A DNA stretch of 64,000 nt from an uncultured delta proteobacterium (GTDB lineage: Bacteria > Myxococcota_A > Polyangia > Fen-1088). Under the pieces are notes generated by a model. It worked only from the letters and a program-made list of their open reading frames with translations. It was not told where the DNA came from and did no database searches. The stretch covers positions 1 through 64,000 of the forward strand of contig CAVYGB010000003.1 in the NCBI GenBank assembly GCA_963767925.1, in the 5' to 3' direction. This document shows positions 2 through 12,473 of this stretch, piece after piece. Each line of letters opens with the position of its first letter. The first letter of the stretch is position 1. The translations under genes were made by a program, and so were the position numbers.

Positions 2-310
2 AACCTGCGAGAAGAATGCCTCCGGATGGGCTTGCCCCGCCCTGACGTGAGCCCGACCGAGGTGCGCGGAGTCTCGCGAGTCGGCCTCCAGGGTAGGGCG
101 CGTCTATCGTTCTCGGTCGCCGTTCGAGGACCTGTTGCGGTCGGCCGCCACCTCCACTCCGGCGGTGGCCTGTTCGTTCCGGCCACCCGTGGCGACCCAG
201 TAACTGCCTACCCGGTTGAGGCTGGAGAGGCCGGCAGCCTGGCGGGAAGTGATTTTCCGGTGGCGCCGTCGGACACACCCGAAAACAGCGATCCGATGAT
301 CCAGTCGTAA
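2..310 (+). CDS. csb2: Type I-G Cas5/Cas6 fusion Csb2, C-terminal fragment (5' end outside window)
   Basis: Open frame from base 2 (NLREECLRMGLPRP...) containing GPVAVGRHLHSGGGLF, a Cas6-type Gly-rich loop; lies upstream of cas4-cas1, cas2 and an I-G-like array. Confidence 0.7.
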   Translation, partial: NLREECLRMGLPRPDVSPTEVRGVSRVGLQGRARLSFSVAVRGPVAVGRHLHSGGGLFVPATRGDPVTAYPVEAGEAGSLAGSDFPVAPSDTPENSDPMIQS

Positions 311-1743
311 TCCGGGACGGAGCCATCCCACCAGGGGAAGTTCGTCTCCGGGCCGATCTCGACGCCGTGTTCGGCCGCCCAGATCCGCAGCTCTTCAACT
401 GCGTTCTCGACCTGTAGAGCGGCGGGGACGCCGGGCAGGCATTTTCCGTCGGCCATGTGAAAGACGACCTCGGCATCGCCGACATGTTCGATGGAGCATT
501 TGCCCTCGTGCAACAGGCGGTGGTGGCGGGTGCAGAGGAGGACCAAGTTGCTCAGCTTCGTCTCGCCGCCGGTCATCCAGTGCTGGACGTGGTGGCCGTG
601 CAGAAAACGTGTGTGCCCACAGCCGGGAAAGCGACAGCCCCGGTCACGCAACCAGAGGGCACGCCGGATGGCCGGGGGGATGCTGCGCGTACGACGGCCG
701 ACATCCAGCACGGAGCCGTCGTCGTCTGTGCGGGTGGCCACCAGCCCGCAATCGCAGGCAATCCGACGGAGTGTCTCGGCCGGGAGCCGCGTGCCGTCGT
801 CGAGCGTCGCCACCCAGTCCCCGTCGTCACCGATCATGTCCTGATCGAGGTGCACGAAGACCTGGTACCGGTCGCCGCCGTTTCCGGTCCGTGTGCTGGC
901 GGCGCCCTCCCCTGGGGGCTCTGACAGGTACCTTTCGGCGAGGTGCACCGCCGCATCCGCCAGAGAGACCACCGGCGCTTCCTCGGAAACCTGGTTCACC
1001 TTCTTGCAACCCGGCGCCGCGCTGGGTGTCACGGACCCGGCGACAGCAGCGGTATCCACCGAAACCCTCGGTCGAGCCAAGGAGGTGGCCGAGGTGGACG
1101 AAATGGCGGATTCGCTCGCTTCGGGTGGAGCCGGGGCGTTGGGCACTTCGCGCGCGCCAGGCTGGTCGGGGAGGGTCGGGTGGGCGTTGTTCCGACGTTG
1201 TTCTCGCAAGGTGGTGCGCGCCTTCTCGATGGCCTGACGAACCAGCGCCGCCTCGTCGGGATGCAGCACCAACTCGAGACGGACCATTCCACCGGGTAGG
1301 AGGCGCTCCTGGACAGAACGATCCTCGACGAGCGGGCCTTCCTCCATCAACGAGCTCGCCACCCGCCGATATGCCCGGCAGATCTTCTCGAGCTGGGCAC
1401 CGGTCGCGTGGTGGGCAAGCTCGAGGAGGCGCGCTTCGTTTTCGGGCGTGGCGACGCGGGTCAGGGCCCGGACTTTCGCGTACGACAGTTCTCCCCGGCC
1501 GAGCGCCCTGTCGATGGCTGGTAGCGCGCCGAGCGCTCGGGCGACGCGCACCTTCTCCCGCGCGGTCGGGAGGTCGACGCCGATTCGCCACGAGAGCCAG
1601 TGCGCACAGGACACGGCACCCTGGCGTTCCCAGCCTCCATCTTCATCGAATTCGCGGATGCAGCAGAGCAGGCGCGCCGTGGCCGCGTCCAGATGCGCGG
1701 CAAGCGAGGCGATCTCGTCAGCTAGCTCGGCGGCTGTAGCCAT
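208..1743 (-). CDS. DUF222 domain / HNH endonuclease protein (13E12-repeat-like family)
   Basis: N-terminal 'SCAHWLSWRIG...AREKVRVARAL' and C-terminal 'RRALWLRDRGCRFPGC...HHVQHW..GGET.LSNLVLLC..HH' HNH motif. Confidence 0.9.
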   Translation of the reverse strand: MATAAELADEIASLAAHLDAATARLLCCIREFDEDGGWERQGAVSCAHWLSWRIGVDLPTAREKVRVARALGALPAIDRALGRGELSYAKVRALTRVATPENEARLLELAHHATGAQLEKICRAYRRVASSLMEEGPLVEDRSVQERLLPGGMVRLELVLHPDEAALVRQAIEKARTTLREQRRNNAHPTLPDQPGAREVPNAPAPPEASESAISSTSATSLARPRVSVDTAAVAGSVTPSAAPGCKKVNQVSEEAPVVSLADAAVHLAERYLSEPPGEGAASTRTGNGGDRYQVFVHLDQDMIGDDGDWVATLDDGTRLPAETLRRIACDCGLVATRTDDDGSVLDVGRRTRSIPPAIRRALWLRDRGCRFPGCGHTRFLHGHHVQHWMTGGETKLSNLVLLCTRHHRLLHEGKCSIEHVGDAEVVFHMADGKCLPGVPAALQVENAVEELRIWAAEHGVEIGPETNFPWWDGSVPDYDWIIGSLFSGVSDGATGKSLPARLPASPASTG

Positions 1744-1988
1744 GATTCAGACATGCTATTCAAATGTTCAGTAAGATCAATTAGAAATGTCCTGTTGAGT
1801 CTTTCACGCCGAAAGAAGCTCATCACGAAGGTTCGCGTGTCTTTTGCCGCTAACGCTCAAGCCGATCTGCCGGGGGTCGATGGGTCGGGGGAGCGTCCTG
1901 GCGGCCGATCTGGCCGACAGTTCCCATGGCCACCCACGTCCGCGGTGACCCCTGGCGCTCTGGCGGCAAGGACGGGTGGAGACGAACC

Positions 1989-3689
1989 ATGGCCAGTTCA
2001 GCTACCAGCTCTGCCGACGTTCCGGACCTGGTGCCGGCGCGCATGTTGAACGAGTTCACCTACTGTCCGCGGCTGGCTTGGCTCGAGTGGGTGCAGGGGG
2101 ACTTCGTGGACAGCGCCGACACCGTCGATGGGCGCCGGCACCATCGGCGCGTGGACCGGCCGACCGGTGATCTGCCCACCCCGGACGACATGCCGGAAGA
2201 TCGGGAGCAGCTTCACGCACGTTCGGTCCACCTTTCCTCGCCGAGCGCTGGATTGGTAGCTCGCATCGATCTCGTCGAGGCGAACGGCGTCGATGTGACG
2301 CCAATTGACTACAAGCGGGGAGAAGCGCCCGACGTACCCGAAGGTGCGTGGGAACCCGAGCGGGTGCAGCTCTGCGCGCAGGGCCTGATCCTCGAGGACA
2401 ACGGTTACTCGTGTCGAGAGGGTGTCCTCTACTTCGCTGGATCCCGGCGGCGCGTGACAATCCCCTTTACGCCCGAGCTTCGCGCCCGGACCCTCGAGCT
2501 CCTCGGGCAGATGCGGGAGACCATGGCGGGATCGACAATTCCGCCGCCGCTGGACGATAGCCCGAAGTGTCCCCGCTGTTCGCTGGTGGGCATCTGCCTC
2601 CCCGACGAGGTGAACCTTCTTCGGACGCAACAGGCGGAGCCCGAGGCCGACCCGGAGACGCCAAGGAAGCTCGTGCCGGCTCGCGACGATGCTCTCCCCG
2701 TATACGTTCAGGCCGCGGGAACCCGAGTCGGGAAGAGCGGCGAGGAGATCACCATCGAGCCGCGCGAGGGGGAGAAGCAAACGGCGCGACTGGCGCAGAC
2801 GTCCCAGCTCGCCCTCTTCGGGGCGGTCCAGATCTCCACGCAGGCGCTGCACGCGATCGTGGGTCGGGGCATCCCGGTCTGCTACTTCTCGACCGGCGGC
2901 TGGTTCCACGCCATCACGACCGGCCTCATGCACAAGAACGTGGAGCTGCGACGCTCCCAGTTCCGGATTGCGGACGACCCCGTGAGATCGCTGGCCCTGG
3001 CCCGCCGATTCGTCGGGAGCAAGATTCGCAATTGCCGCACCTTCTTGCGCCGGAATTCGGAGCTATCGGCGCGGTCACTCGACGCTCTGAAAGTGCTCGC
3101 CAACCAGGCCGACCAGGCCGAGTCTCCGGCTTCCCTGCTCGGCATCGAAGGAAGCGCGGCGCGAGAGTACTTCCAGAGGTTCTCCGGCCTGCTGAAACGG
3201 ACGGAGGAAGAGGGCCTCGCCTTCGACTTCGACGGTCGCAACAGAAGACCACCGAAGGATCCGGTCAACGCAATGCTGTCCCTGGCCTACGCAGTCCTGG
3301 CGAAGGACCTCACGGTAGTTCTGCAGGCGGTCGGATTCGATCCCTACCTGGGCTTTTACCACCGCCCGCGCTACGGCCGGCCGGCGCTGGCGCTGGATCT
3401 CATGGAGGAGTTCAGACCTTTGATCGCCGATTCTGTCGTGGTGAACGCCATCAATACCGGCGTCGTGCGGCGGAAGGACTTCATAGTTCGGGGTGGGGCA
3501 TACGCCTTGACCCCTCCGGGACGGGCCCGCCTCCTTCAGGCGTACGAGCGACGCATGGACGAGCTGATCACGCATCCCGTTTTCGGCTACCGCATCAGCT
3601 ACCGGCGGGTGCTGGAGGTGCAGGCACGCCTGCTGGCCAGGCACCTGGCCGGCGAGATCCCCGAGTTTCCGGGCTTCGAGACGAGGTGA
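1989..3689 (+). CDS. cas1: CRISPR-associated Cas4-Cas1 fusion
   Basis: Cas4 motifs (YCPR, DYKRG, QLCAQ, CPRCSL..IC) followed by Cas1 motifs (LLGIEG.AA..YF, NRRPP.DPVNAMLSLAY, LALDLMEEFRP). Start placed at ATG 1989; ORF track starts at 1926. Confidence 0.95.
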   Translation: MASSATSSADVPDLVPARMLNEFTYCPRLAWLEWVQGDFVDSADTVDGRRHHRRVDRPTGDLPTPDDMPEDREQLHARSVHLSSPSAGLVARIDLVEANGVDVTPIDYKRGEAPDVPEGAWEPERVQLCAQGLILEDNGYSCREGVLYFAGSRRRVTIPFTPELRARTLELLGQMRETMAGSTIPPPLDDSPKCPRCSLVGICLPDEVNLLRTQQAEPEADPETPRKLVPARDDALPVYVQAAGTRVGKSGEEITIEPREGEKQTARLAQTSQLALFGAVQISTQALHAIVGRGIPVCYFSTGGWFHAITTGLMHKNVELRRSQFRIADDPVRSLALARRFVGSKIRNCRTFLRRNSELSARSLDALKVLANQADQAESPASLLGIEGSAAREYFQRFSGLLKRTEEEGLAFDFDGRNRRPPKDPVNAMLSLAYAVLAKDLTVVLQAVGFDPYLGFYHRPRYGRPALALDLMEEFRPLIADSVVVNAINTGVVRRKDFIVRGGAYALTPPGRARLLQAYERRMDELITHPVFGYRISYRRVLEVQARLLARHLAGEIPEFPGFETR

Positions 3690-3693
3690 CAGG

Positions 3694-3984
3694 ATGCGAA
3701 CCGTCTACCTCGTGTGTTACGACATCAGCGATGATGGCCGCCTCCGCCGTGTCTACAAGACAATGCGAGGATTCGGCGATCACCTGCAGCTATCGGTCTT
3801 CCGGTGCGAGCTCTCTGCCAAGGAGCGCGCCGAGATGATCTTCGCCCTCTCCGAGATTATCTCCATGGAGGACGACCAGGTGCTCATCGTGGACATCGGT
3901 CCGCCAGACGGCCGAGCCGACACTGCCTTCGAGACCATCGGACGCCCCTACCGCCCGCCGATCCGACATGCAATTGTCGTCTGA
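3694..3984 (+). CDS. cas2: CRISPR-associated Cas2
   Basis: YLVCYDISDD.RLRRV...G.HLQLSVF motif, 96 aa, directly after cas1. Confidence 0.95.
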   Translation: MRTVYLVCYDISDDGRLRRVYKTMRGFGDHLQLSVFRCELSAKERAEMIFALSEIISMEDDQVLIVDIGPPDGRADTAFETIGRPYRPPIRHAIVV

Positions 3985-4238: not shown

Positions 4239-7200
4239 CTCTCCGCCGTCCCCGGACGGCGGCCCCATTGAAGCGCTGGCGACGTGCTCGGACGTGGTCG
4301 CAGTCACGCGGCGCTCTCCGCCGTCCCCGGACGGCGGCCCCATTGAAGCCACCGCCGGCTCGAAGCGACCCGACGACGTACGCTCGGCTCTCCGCCGTCC
4401 CCGGACGGCGGCCCCATTGAAGCATGCGAGTCGGCGCACGCAGGGCCGTGCGTCCTGCTAGGTCCTCTCCGCCGTCCCCGGACGGCGGCCCCATTGAAGC
4501 GTGACGACGCCGCCGTGGCGTCCGCGGGTCGAGCCCGCCTCTCCGCCGTCCCCGGACGGCGGCCCCATTGAAGCCGCGAAAAGCCGCGCTGACCTCGGCG
4601 CGGAACGCTCGACCTCTCCGCCGTCCCCGGACGGCGGCCCCATTGAAGCGACGGCCAAGGTGAAGATTCGCACTCGCGCGAAGCGGCTCTCCGCCGTCCC
4701 CGGACGGCGGCCCCATTGAAGCTTGGTCAGGTACGCAATCTGTTTTTCGGGGCACTTCGGCTCTCCGCCGTCCCCGGACGGCGGCCCCATTGAAGCGTGA
4801 GCGCGGGGCCCAAATTTTCATGGTCGGAGCGCCTCTCCGCCGTCCCCGGACGGCGGCCCCATTGAAGCCCAGCCACGGAACGGTCATCGTCCACGCCTTC
4901 CGGCACCAGCTCTCCGCCGTCCCCGGACGGCGGCCCCATTGAAGCAGAACGGTGCACATTCCGCACACAAACCGCCATACTCGGCTCTCCGCCGTCCCCG
5001 GACGGCGGCCCCATTGAAGCGGGTCCAACTTCAACGGATCGCCCGACATCGTGTTCGGCTCTCCGCCGTCCCCGGACGGCGGCCCCATTGAAGCCCGCCG
5101 CGTCAAAACTGCAACAACTGGTCGCTGACCTCTCCGCCGTCCCCGGACGGCGGCCCCATTGAAGCCTCGAGAACTGCTATTTGCACCTCGTCCCGGCCGC
5201 GGCTCTCTCCGCCGTCCCCGGACGGCGGCCCCATTGAAGCTCGATCTCTCGGCCAGCCGATCGCGGACTCGCAGCAGGTCTCTCCGCCGTCCCCGGACGG
5301 CGGCCCCATTGAAGCAGGGATCTCGGTGTTCTGAATCCGCTGCGGGATCGAGTCTCTCCGCCGTCCCCGGACGGCGGCCCCATTGAAGCTCTATGCCGCT
5401 GGGCACAGCCGCCCGTTCGTCCCATCGGCTCTCCGCCGTCCCCGGACGGCGGCCCCATTGAAGCGCTCGATGTCCTCGCCCGGCCGCAGCCCCCGGATGC
5501 GGACCTCTCCGCCGTCCCCGGACGGCGGCCCCATTGAAGCACATCACTGATATGGAAGGGTCTACTCAGGAATGGGTGCCTCTCCGCCGTCCCCGGACGG
5601 CGGCCCCATTGAAGCAACTCATGGCGGATCTCGCGCCCGGAGCTGCTCGGGGGACTCTCCGCCGTCCCCGGACGGCGGCCCCATTGAAGCTCCGCCTGCA
5701 GCCGGGTGAGGGACAATTACTCCGCCCTCGGCTCTCCGCCGTCCCCGGACGGCGGCCCCATTGAAGCACTCCCGGGTTGGAGGGGCGATGGGGCCTCCCG
5801 GTCCTCTCTCCGCCGTCCCCGGACGGCGGCCCCATTGAAGCTCATGTCCCCGTCCGAGGTGGGCGGACTTCCTGGCCGACTCTCCGCCGTCCCCGGACGG
5901 CGGCCCCATTGAAGCTCGCAGAATTCAACTCGGGTGGTGTCGGGCAAATCCTCCTCTCCGCCGTCCCCGGACGGCGGCCCCATTGAAGCGCGTCCGCCCT
6001 GGCGCTCTTCATCTGGCACAAGCGAGCCAACTCTCCGCCGTCCCCGGACGGCGGCCCCATTGAAGCGGCGGCGGGATGGCGGTGCTCGACCTGCGCCACC
6101 CCGAGGCTCTCCGCCGTCCCCGGACGGCGGCCCCATTGAAGCGGGATCTTCTCCCTTGCCATCTACCTTGTACCGGCTATCTCTCCGCCGTCCCCGGACG
6201 GCGGCCCCATTGAAGCCCCACAGTCTCCCGAGCGGTCTCAGTCGCAGTCACGTGGCCTCTCCGCCGTCCCCGGACGGCGGCCCCATTGAAGCCCCTGAGA
6301 CCCTCGACGGAGCCACGGTCGGACGTCACGGGCCTCTCCGCCGTCCCCGGACGGCGGCCCCATTGAAGCGCTCTAAACGCGGTTTATCGCTACTACGCGA
6401 CTTCTTCTCTCCGCCGTCCCCGGACGGCGGCCCCATTGAAGCCCTAAAATCAAGACCCGGGCCAAGACGCTCCAAGACGCTCTCCGCCGTCCCCGGACGG
6501 CGGCCCCATTGAAGCGCGACTGCCTACACCCCTCTAATGAGCCCGTTGGACCCTCTCCGCCGTCCCCGGACGGCGGCCCCATTGAAGCACGACTCCAAGG
6601 AAAAGGGGCACTGGCGTGTTCAAGTGGAACTCTCCGCCGTCCCCGGACGGCGGCCCCATTGAAGCTGACCCCACGCACCCACCATGGATTCCATGTACCG
6701 ACGCTCTCCGCCGTCCCCGGACGGCGGCCCCATTGAAGCAAGGGCGGCTCAAGCGGGGCGTGAACACCTTGTTGAATCTCTCCGCCGTCCCCGGACGGCG
6801 GCCCCATTGAAGCATCGACAAGCTGGACAAAGAGGGACCCGATGCTTACGAGGCTCTCCGCCGTCCCCGGACGGCGGCCCCATTGAAGCTGCTCGGACAT
6901 GGGCCGGGACACCAGCACCAGGTCGCCACTCTCCGCCGTCCCCGGACGGCGGCCCCATTGAAGCTCGCAAGGGTTCCAGTCTTCGCGGTCGCTTTGGTGA
7001 CCGCTCTCCGCCGTCCCCGGACGGCGGCCCCATTGAAGCGCCTATTCCAACTGCCCGACCGATTCGACGGGCGCCTCTCCGCCGTCCCCGGACGGCGGCC
7101 CCATTGAAGCCGACCCGCACCAACGGTTGGCCGGGTTCTGATACTGGGACTCTCCGCCGTCCCCGGACGGCGGCCCCATTGAAGCTTCGTTAAATTCACT

Positions 7201-9776
7201 AAATTCGAAGTGCCTGGCAGTGTCTCTCCGCCGTCCCCGGACGGCGGCCCCATTGAAGCAAAGACCTTTTCCTTCATTGCGCCCTCCAGCCAGTCAGCTC
7301 TCCGCCGTCCCCGGACGGCGGCCCCATTGAAGCTGGAACTGACCCTGAACCTTGCGGAGGTTGTCGATCACCCTCTCCGCCGTCCCCGGACGGCGGCCCC
7401 ATTGAAGCTTCAGCTGCTCGCCCGACACCCCCTTGGCCCGGAACACCTCTCCGCCGTCCCCGGACGGCGGCCCCATTGAAGCAAGTCGTTCCTCACCGGG
7501 TGCAACCTCGCCTTCGGGCTGCTCTCCGCCGTCCCCGGACGGCGGCCCCATTGAAGCGCAACACGCCGGGGCTGGACATCAAGGATACGGGGCGGCTCTC
7601 CGCCGTCCCCGGACGGCGGCCCCATTGAAGCTGCTCATCCCCCGGCTCGCCCTTGAGGATGTCATGCAGCTCTCCGCCGTCCCCGGACGGCGGCCCCATT
7701 GAAGCCGCAGCGGCGGGGCCGCGCTGGAGCCCCACCTGGACACCTCTCCGCCGTCCCCGGACGGCGGCCCCATTGAAGCTGCGAGATCGTCAGGCTGCCC
7801 TGCCGCATGTGGCGCGGAGCTCTCCGCCGTCCCCGGACGGCGGCCCCATTGAAGCCAGGGATTGGTGGCCGGGACGATGAGCTTGCCGGCCGCTCTCCGC
7901 CGTCCCCGGACGGCGGCCCCATTGAAGCTAGAAATCGAGCAGGCCGGCCTGATCCTTCGGACGCTGACTCTCCGCCGTCCCCGGACGGCGGCCCCATTGA
8001 AGCGACATGGGCGCGTGGCACTCGGCGTGCGGAACGACCCACTCTCCGCCGTCCCCGGACGGCGGCCCCATTGAAGCTGAGCCAGGCCGGACATGTCCCG
8101 TGCCTGTTGCGCTCCTCTCCGCCGTCCCCGGACGGCGGCCCCATTGAAGCGCTGTTAGCGTGGCGGCAGCTCGGGGAGTTGTACGACTCTCCGCCGTCCC
8201 CGGACGGCGGCCCCATTGAAGCGTGGCGGACGCAGATCCAAACGTTACCCCGCCCAATGAGCTCTCCGCCGTCCCCGGACGGCGGCCCCATTGAAGCCAC
8301 TTGGCCGTGGCGTCGACGTAGAAATCCGTCTGCGCCTCTCCGCCGTCCCCGGACGGCGGCCCCATTGAAGCGGCCTGAGCGCCGCGGGCATGTACGGCAA
8401 GGTCACGTCTCTCCGCCGTCCCCGGACGGCGGCCCCATTGAAGCAACGCGGCGGGCACGCTGGGCACCGGCCAGAACGCCACCTCTCCGCCGTCCCCGGA
8501 CGGCGGCCCCATTGAAGCGAGGCTGCCCACCGGCTCACCGCGGGCGTGCCCCCGCTCTCCGCCGTCCCCGGACGGCGGCCCCATTGAAGCTTCAGCTGCT
8601 CGCCCGACACCCCCTTGGCCCGGAACACTCTCCGCCGTCCCCGGACGGCGGCCCCATTGAAGCACCTTCGACCTACTCGTCGATGGCAGCGACCTGTACA
8701 TCTCTCCGCCGTCCCCGGACGGCGGCCCCATTGAAGCCCCCTTTCGTCGATCTTGAGGCGACGGAGCGACTGGCCTCTCCGCCGTCCCCGGACGGCGGCC
8801 CCATTGAAGCTCTAGGGCCCTTGTGGGCCCCGGGGTGTGCGGGTTAGCTCTCCGCCGTCCCCGGACGGCGGCCCCATTGAAGCCGCCCACCGACGCTGTC
8901 TACGTCACCGAGTATCTGGGCGCTCTCCGCCGTCCCCGGACGGCGGCCCCATTGAAGCCGTTCGGACTCCAGGCAGCGCCGTAGAATTTGAACGGCTCTC
9001 CGCCGTCCCCGGACGGCGGCCCCATTGAAGCAATCGAAGAGTAGTCACTCTCCGCGAACTTCTTACGGCCTCTCCGCCGTCCCCGGACGGCGGCCCCATT
9101 GAAGCGTCAAGTCGCGGAACGCGTTCAGCTCGAGCACCGAGACCTCTCCGCCGTCCCCGGACGGCGGCCCCATTGAAGCGGTCTCCACGCGAGCTGGCGT
9201 GCGATCGACGCGCTTGGCTCTCCGCCGTCCCCGGACGGCGGCCCCATTGAAGCGGCGGTGTTGAAAGCGACGCCGAGTTTGCGCGCCACCCTCTCCGCCG
9301 TCCCCGGACGGCGGCCCCATTGAAGCTCAGCCCCGCGGTGTGGTCGAGGCCGGAGGCCGAGACCTCTCCGCCGTCCCCGGACGGCGGCCCCATTGAAGCA
9401 ACTTGACCTTCTGACTGCCTACCCACCCAGGGCCGGGCTCTCCGCCGTCCCCGGACGGCGGCCCCATTGAAGCGTCGCGAGAAATGCCGAGTCGTCCGGG
9501 GGGACCAGGAGCCCACTCTCCGCCGTCCCCGGACGGCGGCCCCATTGAAGCCGCCTCGGCCCGGTCTTGGTGGCCCGGGTGTTCTGCGAGCTCTCCGCCG
9601 TCCCCGGACGGCGGCCCCATTGAAGCGACTATCGACGGAAGGCGCTGCTCGATGAGCACACCGAAGCTCTCCGCCGTCCCCGGACGGCGGCCCCATTGAA
9701 GCCGGTCCACGTTTCGCAGCTCCTCGACCTCCACCTTCACCCCGCTCTCCGCCGTCCCCGGACGGCGGCCCCATTG
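4239..9776 (+). CRISPR. CRISPR array, about 75 repeats / 74 spacers; repeat CTCTCCGCCGTCCCCGGACGGCGGCCCCATTGAAGC (36 bp)
   Basis: Essentially invariant repeat with an 8-bp hairpin (CCGCCGTC/GACGGCGG) and ATTGAAGC 3' end; spacers about 35-42 nt; last repeat (9745-9776) lacks the terminal AAGC. Counted by hand. Confidence 0.98.
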
Positions 9777-11053
9777 GTATAGGCCGTCGTCAGCTCGTCG
9801 AGGCTGTTCGTGACGCCCGTGGTTGATCCACCCAGCGCCGGGGCCAGGCCCGCAGCGGTGCTCAGGGCGATCTGGATGGTGCCGTCGGGTTTCTCGAGGG
9901 CGAGGTACACCGTCTCCGAATGGGTGGGCGGCGGCGAGCTCTGGACGTTGCCGAGGACGAGGGCGTTCCTGTTCTTGTCGAGCGCCCACGAGGCGAAGTC
10001 GACCTTGACCGACTTGTTGTTGGTGGTGGCGCTGACGAAGGCCAGCTCGCCGGCCAGCAGGACCTTGGCGGTGAGGGTGCCGGCCCGGAAGCGGGCGGCG
10101 GTGTCCATCATGCCGGTGTAGGTGGTCGTCGCGGTCTGGACGGTGGGATCGTGAGCCCGGCTCGCCTCGATGCCGCTGATGTCCATCGACTGGGTCGGGG
10201 GCGCCTGCCAGCGGAAGACGGCCTTGATGAACCCGGCCACGCCGGCCCAGGTGGTCGCCGCCGGCGCCGCCAGCACGAACGAGCAGTAGGTTCTGTCGCC
10301 CCAGACCACCGCCTCCCAGGCGTCGAGCGTCTTGCTGCCGCCGGCGACGGCGGAGAATCCCCAGGGGAGCTTGCCGAGGGCGACGGAGATCCTCGCGCCG
10401 GCCGACTGCTGGCCGAGAAGCTTGGCGAAGGCCGTCGAGCCGAGGCCCATGACGATGCACTGGCCAGTCTTGGGGGTCCAGAGATCCTCGGCGCTATAGA
10501 GCATGCCGTTGATCGAGCCGGTCAGGCCATGGATGTTGCGGCCCGTGTTGGAGCCGCCGAGATTGCTTCCGCCCAGGTTGGTGCCGCCGAGGTTGTTGCC
10601 CCCCAGGTTGGAGCCGCCGAAGTTGCTGCCGCCAAGGTTACTGCCACCCAGGTTGACGCCGCCCAGGTTGACGCCGCCGAGGTTCGAGCCGCCCAGGTTG
10701 ACGCCGCCGAGGTTCGAGCCGCCCAGGTTCACTCCGCCGAGGTTGTTGCCCCCGAGGTTGTTGCCCCCGAGGTTGGTGCCGCCGAGGTTGGAACTGCCGA
10801 GGTTGGAACCGCCGAGGTTCGACCCGCCGAGGTTGGTGCCGCCGAGGTTGGCGCCGCCGAGGTTGGCGCCACCCAGGTTGTCGCCGCCCAGGTTGTCGCC
10901 GCTGAGCGCGGAGGCCTCCTGCTCGACCTCACCAGCCGGGACGGGCAACGGCTGGTCGTCCAGCGGCTCCGGGTGCACACATCCGGTGGCGGCGGCCAGG
11001 AGGGTCCCGACCGCGAGTCGAAGCACACGTTTGGCGGTCCTGCCTGACCACAC
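9737..11053 (-). CDS. Predicted lipoprotein with about 24 GGxNL pentapeptide repeats; 3' end runs into the last CRISPR repeat
   Basis: Signal peptide/lipobox-like LLAAATGC, then a (GG[DASTNV]NL)n tract and a ~250-aa unknown domain. Final residues NGAAVRGRRRAG are the antisense CRISPR repeat. GTG start 11053 (or 11026) is inferred. Confidence 0.75.
   Translation of the reverse strand: MWSGRTAKRVLRLAVGTLLAAATGCVHPEPLDDQPLPVPAGEVEQEASALSGDNLGGDNLGGANLGGANLGGTNLGGSNLGGSNLGSSNLGGTNLGGNNLGGNNLGGVNLGGSNLGGVNLGGSNLGGVNLGGVNLGGSNLGGSNFGGSNLGGNNLGGTNLGGSNLGGSNTGRNIHGLTGSINGMLYSAEDLWTPKTGQCIVMGLGSTAFAKLLGQQSAGARISVALGKLPWGFSAVAGGSKTLDAWEAVVWGDRTYCSFVLAAPAATTWAGVAGFIKAVFRWQAPPTQSMDISGIEASRAHDPTVQTATTTYTGMMDTAARFRAGTLTAKVLLAGELAFVSATTNNKSVKVDFASWALDKNRNALVLGNVQSSPPPTHSETVYLALEKPDGTIQIALSTAAGLAPALGGSTTGVTNSLDELTTAYTNGAAVRGRRRAG
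10545..10904 (-). repeat. 15-bp coding tandem repeat (GGxNL pentapeptide, about 24 copies)
   Basis: Recurring ccgaggtt/cccaggtt every 15 nt on the + strand. Confidence 0.95.
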
Positions 11054-11258
11054 TGCATGTCGCGTGTCACAGTGAGTGACGTAGGTTACATAAAAAAACT
11101 GAGTAAAGTCCAGCCGCACCGGGGCTTCAGGGAAGGGGCTACCAGCGCGCCGTTGCCTGCGGCACAACATCGCCTCTCCGGAGGGCCACAGTCGGAGGTG
11201 GTAGAGCCCGCCCCGGTGTCGGCCGCGCCCTCAATCACTGCTTTTCGAGGTGGCCGCC

Positions 11259-11408
11259 GACTTCCTTTTCGCCAGCGGAGGGCATGCAGCTCCTGGCGGC
11301 AGAGCGAGATACGGAGACGCGCACGCTGCTCCTGTTCGGGCTGCGGACCGGCACGAGCGGGGGAGCAGCTCGCGCTGGAGTGGGAGACATCGACTTCGCC
11401 AACAAGCA
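11259..11408 (+). pseudogene. Tyrosine recombinase (phage integrase) remnant
   Basis: With small frameshifts reads DFL-SPAEGMQLLAAERDTETRTLLLFGLRTG-x-RAGEQLALEW-GDIDFANK, matching the integrase Box I motif (TGxRxGEL.AL.W.DIDF). Confidence 0.7.
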
Positions 11409-11504
11409 ACGGCGGCCCCATTGAAAGCGGAGCTCGCGCACCTGGAAGTCAGCCCACTGAAACTCGAACTCTTCGCCGTCTCCTGACGGCGGCCCCGTTG
11501 AAGC
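11409..11504 (+). CRISPR. Orphan array remnant: 3' half-repeat + 40-nt spacer + degenerate terminal repeat
   Basis: 11409-11428 is ACGGCGGCCCCATTGAAAGC; 11469-11504 is CTCTTCGCCGTCTCCTGACGGCGGCCCCGTTGAAGC (4 mismatches to consensus). Confidence 0.85.
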
Positions 11505-11606
11505 TTCAGCGAGCGCTGAGCTCTAACCCCCAGGGGGCGGCCGACGATGTTGCCGTCGTCGGCCATGGCCGGGCCTTCGACCGTGGCGACGGCCCGACCG
11601 ATGACC

Positions 11607-12473
11607 TCAGGACAGAGCCTGCTTGTGCGCCTCGGCCCAGCGGCGCAGGCGTGTGAGCTGGAGCTCGTGGCGGCGCTCGACGCCGGCGATGTCGGCGTCG
11701 TAGCCCACGCGATCGAACCACTCGAGCATGATGGCGAACTCGGGGCTGTAGGCCCGGACCTGTTCGATGGGCTGGCGCTCGAACTCCACCTTGCGGCCCA
11801 GCACCTCGGTCAAGGTGGCGGCGACCTCCGGCATGGTGAGAGAGTCGCCCGCCAGATCCACCTCCTGGCCGGCGAGCTCGGCGTGGCGGAGGAAGGCCAT
11901 CGCGCCGAGCGCACCGATGTCCTCGACGGCCACCATCTGCAGCTTGGTCGTGGGGGCGAGGGCCACCAGCAGCTTGCCCTGCTTGATGCCCTCGGCAAAG
12001 GCGCCCAACCAGTTCTCCATGAAAAAGACCGGCCGCAAGATGAAATGCGAGGAGAACTTCAGCGCCCGCACGGTCTCTTCGACCCGCCACTTGTTGTCGA
12101 AGTGCGGGATGTCGGTCTTGCGATGGGCGGATCCCACCGAGGTGTAGACGTAGTGCTGAAGCCCGGCTTGGCGGGCGATCTCGGCGAGGCGCTTGCCCTG
12201 CGCCTCTTCCTTCTCGACTCCGGCCTCCCAGGTATTCTGCACGGCGAAGATTCCCCAGGCGCCGGTCACGGCCCGTTCGAGAGAGGCGGCATCGTCCAGA
12301 TCGCCGGTCACGACCTCGGCGCCCCTCGCCGCCAGGGCGCGCGCTGGTTCGGCGTCCGGTTTGCGGGTGACCACCCGGATGCGGGCCCCGGCTTTCAACA
12401 GCCGGTCGGCTACTGCCCCGCCCTGCTTCCCCGTGGCCCCGGTGATGACGATGAGATCGCGCTTGAGGTTCAT
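11607..12473 (-). CDS. NmrA/HSCARG family NAD(P)-binding protein
   Basis: VITGATGKQGGAV Rossmann motif; 'IPHFDNK..VE', 'LRPVFFMEN'. Confidence 0.92.
   Translation of the reverse strand: MNLKRDLIVITGATGKQGGAVADRLLKAGARIRVVTRKPDAEPARALAARGAEVVTGDLDDAASLERAVTGAWGIFAVQNTWEAGVEKEEAQGKRLAEIARQAGLQHYVYTSVGSAHRKTDIPHFDNKWRVEETVRALKFSSHFILRPVFFMENWLGAFAEGIKQGKLLVALAPTTKLQMVAVEDIGALGAMAFLRHAELAGQEVDLAGDSLTMPEVAATLTEVLGRKVEFERQPIEQVRAYSPEFAIMLEWFDRVGYDADIAGVERRHELQLTRLRRWAEAHKQALS

Follow-up and report, generated by a model that had tools for sequence, protein, structure and literature searches.

The window, a 64,000-nt stretch of a contig from a metagenome-assembled genome (MAG), carries a CRISPR adaptation module and a long array. 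The cas4g/cas1g fusion gene (1926–3689, plus strand; NCBIfam NF049935, 800 bits, above cut-off; Pfam Cas_Cas1 and Cas_Cas4) is followed by cas2 (3694–3984, plus strand; TIGR01573, 39 bits, above cut-off), and the position of cas4g/cas1g at the left side of the array fixes the leader end there. We detected the Cas3g, Cas8g2, Cas7g (Csb1) and Csb2 genes by profile matches at the start of contig C2 of the same genome, Cas3g being split into two overlapping frames. Together with Cas4g/Cas1g and Cas2 in the window they make a complete type I-G set, in agreement with the type given by the first-pass annotation, which had been made from the sequence alone.

The main array (4239–9702, plus strand) consists of 74 identical 36-nt repeats, with start positions from 4239 (first) to 9667 (last) and 73 intervening spacers, and is followed by spacer 74 (42 nt, 9703–9744, plus strand), which has no match elsewhere in its own genome. 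The 75th copy of the repeat is incomplete. Its left piece (9745–9776, plus strand) is identical to the consensus over repeat positions 1–32 and lacks the final AAGC, and an insert of 1,632 bp (9777–11408, a patchwork to which no strand was assigned) separates it from the right piece (11409–11428, plus strand), which holds positions 18–36 and one extra A (GAAAGC instead of the normal GAAGC). The array ends with the last spacer (40 nt, 11429–11468, plus strand), whose 5' neighbour is now an incomplete repeat, and with a terminal repeat (11469–11504, plus strand) that has degenerated by four substitutions and, to judge from its sequence, can still form the hairpin. All 75 spacers are 35–42 nt long. 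Beyond the array, the host flank begins with the gene of an NmrA-like oxidoreductase (11607–12473, minus strand; Pfam NmrA, 1.2e-55). We observed a 7-nt in-register match to the 5' part of the terminal repeat immediately left of 11409, a coincidence of roughly 1% that counts against the reading preferred below.

The insert is flanked by a perfect 15-bp direct repeat corresponding to repeat positions 18–32, with its left copy at 9762–9776 and its right copy, inside the right piece of the split repeat, at 11409–11423 (both on the plus strand). At up to two mismatches this 15-mer has 77 matches in the window, against 0.47 expected, and all 77 are inside the array; therefore the duplication is repeat sequence and chance is excluded. 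In silico excision of the insert yields a normally spaced unit with a 37-nt repeat and a 40-nt spacer. The first-pass annotation was thus correct that a repeat is divided by about 1.6 kb of DNA between exact 15-bp direct repeats, that removal of this DNA gives back a near-normal repeat, and that both junctions fall inside genes, here the lipoprotein gene and the recombinase described below. The GC content of the insert (0.67–0.71) is the same as that of its flanks. All 74 full repeats are free of errors, and the indels and junctions described here are therefore unlikely to be sequencing noise. An uninterrupted array in a sibling strain was not found, the last spacer having no match in the own genome and 0 matches in a scan of metagenome contigs, and the relatives have no spacers or array flanks in common with the array of the window.

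The larger part of the insert belongs to a truncated pentapeptide-repeat lipoprotein gene (open reading frame 9737–11026, minus strand; probable GTG start at 11026). Besides a lipobox and a conserved domain, the reading frame encodes about 30 pentapeptide units, and its Pfam matches are to pentapeptide repeats only. The gene is broken after "...TTAY" at 9777, and the final 13 codons and the stop are supplied by the CRISPR repeat. The 1.27-kb piece is the 5' half of the gene: it stays in a single frame throughout its alignment to the paralogues, which extend 86 to 456 residues further. At least eight further copies are present in the own genome, with 68–78% nucleotide identity, and by DNA search the lipoprotein family was found in 2 of the 89 genomes of the bacterial family, both from genus g1. 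The restriction to genus g1 and the many copies in the own genome mean that the insert is host-lineage DNA. A donor copy of the piece was not detected, identity within the own genome (only 84% complete) reaching no more than 78%; the paralogue tree is star-like with a close parent absent, and the best metagenome relatives reach 61–68% identity at the protein level. Upstream of the gene lies a region with 212 nt of unique DNA (11027–11259, no strand assigned), which matched neither the own genome nor 14 paralogue loci nor relatives. Within the lipoprotein gene, 10341–10356 is complementary to repeat positions 2–17 at 15 of 16 positions; this too is a coincidence of roughly 1% and counts against the preferred reading.

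The smaller part is a 149-nt internal fragment of the catalytic domain of a tyrosine recombinase (11260–11408, plus strand), whose homologue has the Pfam Phage_integrase domain. It reads "...LLAAERD...LLLFGLRTG / ARAGEQLALEW / DIDFANKQ", with three indels (+1, −2, −1), and its nucleotide identity is 84% to a locus of the own genome (C10:544055–544206) and 88% to one of a second genome (G001:C83). The fragment is truncated at both ends, and the right junction breaks the catalytic domain after "DIDFANKQ". At about 11259 the two closest homologues are still alike and the window diverges from both, and this 5' departure means that the insert is made of at least two unrelated pieces. Across the right junction the two nearest homologues have zero bases in common with the repeat, so that, relative to them, it looks like a blunt join. 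The recombinase relic had probably decayed before the pieces were joined, because the lipoprotein piece is in one frame and the 149-nt piece has three indels. The first-pass annotation had listed a lipoprotein gene and an integrase remnant; both are present, the former only as a 5' half and the latter only as this short, frameshifted internal piece.

We examined the insert for the hallmarks of mobile elements. Its two genes, both broken by the junctions, run outward from a common middle. Among the 25 longest of 89 inverted pairs none links the ends of the insert, and apart from the lipoprotein fragment its open reading frames are GC-rich shadow frames, none of them a transposase gene. In phage and plasmid collections only the low-complexity pentapeptide stretch gave matches. 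We conclude that the insert is a patchwork of host gene fragments, not a mobile element. An insertion sequence or transposon was rejected, since a target duplication (15 bp) is present but a transposase and, among the 25 longest inverted pairs, terminal inverted repeats are not. Spacer integration by Cas1-Cas2, canonical or ectopic, was rejected as well: the duplicated stretch is 15 bp versus 36 bp for a full repeat, and the insert is 1,632 bp versus spacers of 35–42 nt. A casposon would fit the 15-bp duplication, but no casposase was found in the own genome and no terminal inverted repeats among those 25 pairs of the insert.

We propose that illegitimate recombination put the filler DNA into the penultimate repeat, either where a staggered break had opened it or through template switching, a reading to which we give about an even chance. 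A single event and a repair mechanism of this kind are what we infer from the anatomy of the locus. The scar would lie at the old (trailer) end of the type I-G array, where one illegitimate, non-site-specific recombination event would have added about 1.6 kb of filler. End joining may have repaired a break whose ends were staggered by 15 nt, or replication may have switched template, departing from the hairpin-forming repeat at position 32 and returning to it at position 18; repeat positions 18–32 would be duplicated in both cases. Simple blunt end joining matches the 15-bp duplication poorly, and a staggered break or a template switch, both conjectured here, would be needed. End-joining machinery is potentially available, as the own genome has two Ku genes (179 and 170 bits). 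The filler would be host-lineage DNA that was already a patchwork, composed of the 5' half and promoter region of a lipoprotein paralogue and an old, frameshifted 149-nt piece of a recombinase pseudogene. The first-pass annotation had also suggested that a gene-sized fragment was captured by aberrant Cas1 activity or by recombination. Capture by recombination fits the anatomy, while for a role of Cas1 we found no positive evidence and the implied cuts lie off the repeat borders.

A history of several steps was also considered, in which larger DNA (an island, inversion or translocation) once parted two different repeats and later deletions trimmed one from its 3' side and the other from its 5' side, the 15-bp overlap being coincidental. 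We regard this as unlikely, with a real share of the probability nonetheless. The patchwork has at least one internal junction, near 11259, hence more than one rearrangement took place here, and the drift in the right repeat piece (the extra A) and in the terminal repeat (the four substitutions) suggests age. By our own estimate two random breakpoints in 75-nt units would both fall in repeats and overlap in about 10% of cases, which is too common to be set aside. Against this, three or more events are required where one is enough, no spacer remnant adjoins either repeat piece, and excision of the insert gives the normally spaced unit described above.

The duplication could otherwise be the footprint of a cut-and-paste insertion sequence (IS) that made the 15-bp duplication and was excised, the break being closed by end joining with captured filler. 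We consider this improbable. The two Ku genes would suit such a history, and so would an IS that sits at nearly the same place inside a repeat of a related MAG array with an 11-bp duplication. The own genome, on the other side, has neither a homologue of the transposase of that IS nor a copy of its terminal repeat, and neither end of the insert has an IS remnant. IS families seldom make duplications of 15 bp, which counts against the footprint reading.

The first-pass annotation proposed, as one of two readings, the relic of a site-specific integrative element (a prophage or island) with the type I-G repeat as attB and the two 15-mers as attL and attR. The perfect direct repeat around the insert and the recombinase fragment touching one junction speak for it, and there is a precedent in phage AP1.1, which integrates into Streptococcus pyogenes repeats (bioRxiv 10.1101/2020.10.09.333658). 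On balance the evidence does not support this reading, and we rate it as very unlikely. The recombinase is cut in its catalytic domain by the junction, is truncated on its other side too and has three indels; the sole other gene is a halved lipoprotein gene of the host lineage; no phage or plasmid match extends past the pentapeptide repeats; and the later deletions would have to end precisely at both edges of the core. The core is also not found beside homologous recombinases, a neighbourhood that the first-pass annotation had raised. In the own genome, at up to two mismatches, the 15-mer had 42 matches versus 62 for a control pattern, with no match within 8 kb of the close recombinase homologues, and at 30 recombinase loci in relatives (89.8 kb, about 1.5 kb of flank per side), searched at up to two mismatches with the control pattern alongside, it had 1 match versus 0.

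A mis-integration by Cas4g/Cas1g-Cas2, or in a casposase-like manner, would mean that a long DNA became joined by both of its 3' ends to the repeat, at sites 15 nt apart, which would leave a casposon-like duplication. The target is a CRISPR repeat near an intact cas4/1-cas2 module, and the 15-bp duplication agrees with the casposon signature, the target duplication of casposons being 14–15 bp. The cuts that this route implies, at 17/18 on the top strand and 32/33 on the bottom strand, are off the repeat borders, with flanks unlike the canonical sites, and the mismatches of duplication and insert size noted for spacer integration apply here too. The Cas4g/Cas1g fusion is the sole Cas1 of the genome, which has no casposase, and the lack of a pair linking the two ends of the insert among the 25 longest of its 89 inverted pairs also argues against it, so that we see hardly any likelihood in this route. 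As a broader conjecture, given a slim chance, a staggered-cut process other than transposition may recurrently insert DNA into CRISPR repeats, one candidate being a Cas4/1-Cas2 or casposase-like mode that joins long host DNA ends 15 nt apart and occasionally loads gene-sized fragments into arrays.

An assembly chimera, in which the 1.6-kb piece is not in the array in any real molecule, is highly improbable: the source is a MAG of 13 contigs with 84% completeness and 5% contamination, and no Logan contig from four soil runs bridges 9776/9777 or 11408/11409, but two false joins 15 nt apart within one 36-nt repeat would be an odd artefact, the 5.5-kb array with its 74 perfect repeats was assembled without error, and run X1 has contigs that match, with 0–1 mismatches each, the insert (five of them, in the range 10101–11208), the array (9695–9753) and the right flank (11585–11735), so that the very paralogue carried by the insert exists in the X1 community.

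Insertion of filler DNA by illegitimate recombination, the reading that we prefer, can be set beside the known interruptions of arrays. Phage AP1.1 enters type II-A repeats of S. pyogenes via an 8-bp core (bioRxiv 10.1101/2020.10.09.333658). The likeness is in foreign DNA within a repeat, short flanking direct repeats derived from the repeat, and downstream spacers cut off from processing; AP1.1, unlike the insert, is a complete phage that integrates reversibly by means of a functional integrase and an 8-bp attP/attB core. The window instead has 1.6 kb of gene fragments with a cut 149-nt recombinase pseudogene, no element genes and no sign of the core being used elsewhere.

Insertions of IS and Tn7-like elements in CRISPR arrays are described in a recent article (Mob DNA 2025, PMC11837452). 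IS insertions share with the insert a kilobase-sized interruption and a target duplication of repeat sequence. We found such a case in MAG contig CAVTRY010000021.1, where the repeat of the array has the 3' 21-mer of the window repeat and one repeat is interrupted by an IS that encodes a DDE_Tnp_1 transposase and is bounded by perfect terminal inverted repeats, the left piece of the repeat running to position 33 and the right piece from position 23, with an 11-bp duplication. The IS copies in this array have target duplications of 8 or 11 bp and differ from the insert of the window in these values (versus 15 bp), in their transposase and in their terminal inverted repeats.

Casposons, studied reportedly by Krupovic and co-workers, resemble the insert in the 15-bp value of the duplication and in the CRISPR-repeat target and differ from it in having a casposase and terminal inverted repeats. 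Off-target Cas1-Cas2 integration ("neo-CRISPR"), reportedly described by Nivala, Shipman and Church in 2018, is said to leave a repeat-length duplication around a spacer-sized insert, and the window shows neither. Scars of filler capture or template switching have in common with the insert a mix of unrelated pieces of the genome, joins that look blunt, a short duplication of the target, and Ku genes in the genome; in the window, where no donor locus was found, a templated origin and junction microhomology would be conjectural. To our knowledge, such scars have rarely been documented inside CRISPR repeats.

For the array, the last spacer is probably no longer processable into a normal crRNA, because the 5' arm of the upstream repeat hairpin is lost, and read-through array transcripts would be antisense to the lipoprotein gene. 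Had a repeat served as an attachment site in type I-G, this would have extended a form of phage counter-defence that is not known outside the type II-A arrays of streptococci. What we observed points to an ordinary, neatly preserved scar rather than a landing site for a mobile element. The scar illustrates how an array decays at its old end and how a spacer can be silenced while staying in place, and it is of use mainly as a documented case to set against true IS insertions into repeats of this family. If more cases with a consistent stagger appear, the mechanism deserves a bench test.

We confirmed that a repeat of the type I-G CRISPR array at the start of contig C3 is split by an insert of about 1.6 kb between two copies of a 15-bp direct repeat, exact on both sides. 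The window starts at the beginning of this contig of the 9.34-Mb, 13-contig MAG, and it carries the cas4g/cas1g fusion (1926-3689), cas2 (3694-3984) and, after a 254-nt leader, an array on the plus strand with 74 identical 36-nt repeats (first start 4239, final start 9667) and spacers of 35-42 nt. The 42-nt spacer 74 is followed by the left piece of the split repeat (9745-9776), which stops after position 32 and lacks AAGC, then by 1,632 bp of unrelated sequence (9777-11408), and by the right piece (11409-11428), which runs from position 18 to the repeat end with one extra A. Next are a 40-nt last spacer (11429-11468) and the terminal repeat (11469-11504), which has four substitutions, and beyond them lies an NmrA-like gene on the strand opposite to the array. 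The insert is flanked by repeat positions 18-32 as a perfect 15-bp direct repeat, and removal of the insert with one 15-bp copy leaves a 37-nt repeat with normal spacing, so that both observations of the first-pass annotation hold. Contig C2 begins with the rest of the type I-G set, the genes for Cas3g, Cas8g2, Cas7g and Csb2, which read off the contig end, so that C2 and C3 are probably neighbours in the genome.

The cas3g gene is split into two overlapping frames (C2:4049-6770, minus strand) by a frameshift near C2:5974-5996, and it may be a real pseudogene because the array is error-free. Spacer 42 (7334-7372) has a perfect 39/39 match to the organism's own chromosome (C8:2058906-2058944, TTC before the match); it is self-targeting, which fits the broken cas3g. 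Spacers 15, 46 and 63 (5316-5353, 7632-7669, 8884-8922) each have a match, at 2-3 mismatches, in contig C11 (22.5 kb), which probably represents a phage or plasmid that was binned together with the genome; the 5' flanks of the matches are CTT, TTC and TCT. One protospacer was acquired twice, as spacers 43 and 59 (7409-7446, 8591-8627), which differ in length by one base. The DUF222 and HNH endonuclease gene (208-1743, minus strand) lies between the effector genes and cas4/1, and similar DNA upstream of cas4/1 in both other MAGs sharing the repeat 3' 21-mer makes it a possible conserved accessory gene of this I-G variant.

About 170 nt upstream of cas3g we detected a lone 22-nt repeat 3' piece (positions 15-36, one mismatch; C2:6944-6965, minus strand), with a weak likeness to the repeat 5' part some 38 nt further on. 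A mini-CRISPR able to regulate the cas operon would have this architecture; the sole seed match of the unit (8/9 nt, beside GTT at the cas3g start) is at chance level. The last unit of the array was also considered as a regulatory mini-CRISPR and rejected, since no PAM-flanked match to the seed of its spacer was found near the cas genes or the flanks.

Both parts attributed to the insert, a lipoprotein gene and an integrase remnant, were found, the former cut at the repeat junction and the latter reduced to 149 nt cut on both sides. The lipoprotein ORF (minus strand, probable GTG start at 11026) encodes a lipoprotein signal and, besides about thirty pentapeptide units, a conserved domain of some 250 residues; it enters directly into the repeat, which provides its final 13 codons and stop. 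At least eight further copies, with 68-78% nucleotide identity, are present elsewhere in the genome; the six paralogues read out in full (560-911 residues as stop-to-stop frames) extend 86-456 residues past the cut point of the window copy, just after '...TTAY', and the missing part contains weak CBM_35-like modules. The family is thus expanded, with proteins of about 560-910 residues in at least nine copies here (C1, C8, C9 and C10 among the sites) and at least six in the congener G001. A DNA search of 89 genomes from the taxonomic family detected it in 2, which belong to the window's genus, and in none of the other 87. The 11 copies placed in a tree form a star in which the window copy is without a close parent. 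Given the paralogues in the same genome and the confinement of the family to the genus by DNA search, the lipoprotein piece is host-lineage DNA and not the cargo of a foreign element.

The recombinase piece (about 11260-11408, plus strand) carries three indels (+1, -2, -1); its identity is 84% to a tyrosine-recombinase gene on C10 and 88% to one from the only congener. It is cut on both sides, since the junction interrupts the catalytic domain after 'DIDFANKQ' and since upstream of about 11259 the two homologues are still alike while the window diverges. Its relatives occur in 56 of 89 family genomes, with open frames of about 380-440 codons around many of the matches. In the closest relative, the open frame at C10:543647-544660, an N-terminal stretch resembling an IS91 transposase is fused to the catalytic domain of a tyrosine recombinase, which gives it the look of a further decayed junction of mobile elements. 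At C2:1.69 Mb a recombinase and a lipoprotein gene seemed to adjoin a second time, but this locus was rejected: its recombinase is of the Xer type, and the pentapeptide-repeat protein nearby is unrelated.

With a doubly cut recombinase piece beside a lipoprotein fragment, the insert is a patchwork composed of two or more unrelated fragments. The approximately 230 nt to the right of the lipoprotein gene had no match in the own genome, relatives and 14 paralogue loci, and none of these 14 loci has a recombinase or the window's intergenic DNA alongside. The GC content is like that of the surroundings, and matches in the phage and plasmid collections were limited to the low-complexity pentapeptide stretch. 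GC-rich chance together with possible recombinase homology best accounts for an apparent inverted partial repeat at 11240-11259. Within the lipoprotein gene, 10341-10356 is complementary at 15/16 positions to repeat positions 2-17; summed over all repeat 16-mers, such matches number 92 genome-wide, many of them overlapping, which gives about a 1% chance per 1.6-kb piece. Within the recombinase piece, 11394-11400, just left of 11409, is a 7-nt in-register match to the terminal repeat 5' part, a coincidence of roughly 1%.

We give about half of our confidence to a single-event, non-mobile repair scar in the repeat. A perfect short target duplication around non-mobile filler calls for a staggered break or a template switch. 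In the first route, a break with a 15-nt stagger would have its ends filled in and joined to captured DNA; in the second, replication would exit the repeat at position 32, copy elsewhere and re-enter at position 18. From its sequence the repeat is able to form an 8-9-bp hairpin, a plausible site of stalling or breakage, and two Ku genes are present in the genome. Across the right join, the repeat and the nearest recombinase homologues have 0 bases in common. Three indels in 149 nt, as opposed to one frame kept over 1.27 kb in the lipoprotein piece, suggest that the recombinase relic had already decayed when the pieces were joined.

A multi-step history, in which the 15-bp overlap would be coincidental, is a possible but distinctly less probable explanation.

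A footprint left by IS excision and then closed with filler has a low probability. Genuine IS insertions exist in this repeat family: the scan of species-representative genomes for the repeat 3' 21-mer detected two other MAG arrays and one mini-array, and one of the arrays has 110 repeats without unusual gaps. IS elements interrupt the other array (contig CAVTRY010000021.1) in at least three places. An IS4-like copy, which has a DDE_Tnp_1 transposase and perfect terminal inverted repeats, splits a repeat into a left piece ending at position 33 and a right piece beginning at 23, an 11-bp duplication; two ISL3 copies lie at the repeat 5' edge with 8-bp duplications each, and a further element bounded by inverted repeats adjoins one of them. 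These copies bear all the hallmarks absent from the window's insert, in which we detected no transposase and no inverted pair linking its ends. The IS4-like element was rejected as the agent here, the genome having neither a homologue of its transposase nor its terminal repeat. Both ISL3 copies lie at the identical 5' edge (after ATTTCC) in opposite orientations, and ISL3 may have a target preference for the repeat. The mini-array (JAFGPX010000070.1, about 2940-3020) consists of one full repeat preceded by a 38-nt spacer and, before that, a degenerate 16-nt piece of a repeat 3' part.

One of the two readings offered by the first-pass annotation was the relic of an integrative element, with the 15-mers like attL/attR; a decayed element of this kind is hardly probable, and the repeat as an attachment site is not supported, because the core cuts the integrase instead of lying beside it and was not found beside related integrases. 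The exact 15-mer is absent from the own genome outside the array. At up to two mismatches it has 42 matches there versus 62 for the reversed control pattern, none of them within 8 kb of the close recombinase homologues, and two matches near unrelated recombinases are at chance level; the 30 loci around relatives' homologues (89.8 kb) gave one match, with two mismatches, versus 0 for the control. The streptococcal precedent (bioRxiv 10.1101/2020.10.09.333658) differs in kind, being an entire phage that has an 8-bp core and integrates into every repeat. Our literature search found no report of type I-G repeats as attachment sites, which is not proof of absence in print.

Mis-integration by Cas4/1-Cas2 or a casposase-like enzyme is highly improbable: the duplication is 15 bp, not 36 bp, the implied cut sites differ from the repeat borders, and the genome has a single Cas1. 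An assembly chimera is equally improbable, as the flawless 74-repeat array argues for accurate assembly. Logan contigs from four soil runs, searched with 9300-11800, include none spanning either junction, which speaks neither for nor against the assembly; one run has contigs that match parts of this region, namely insert, array and right flank, at 0-1 mismatches in each case. Metagenome scans gave 0 matches to the last spacer and, with the lipoprotein domain, four loci at 61-68% identity, 0 of them orthologous, and the 41 relatives and 89 family genomes share no trailer with the window's array and gave no lipoprotein copy closer than 75-78%. Neither a sibling strain, an empty site nor a donor locus was found in the metagenome scans, relatives, family genomes and the own genome, which is 84% complete.

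CRISPR arrays are known to be interrupted by IS elements, prophages and Tn7-like elements (PMC11837452), and the split repeat belongs with these interruptions; unlike them, it holds an insert that consists of non-mobile host DNA and comes with a 15-bp duplication. Taken together, with the more exciting attachment-site reading unsupported, the observation is genuine and its significance modest.
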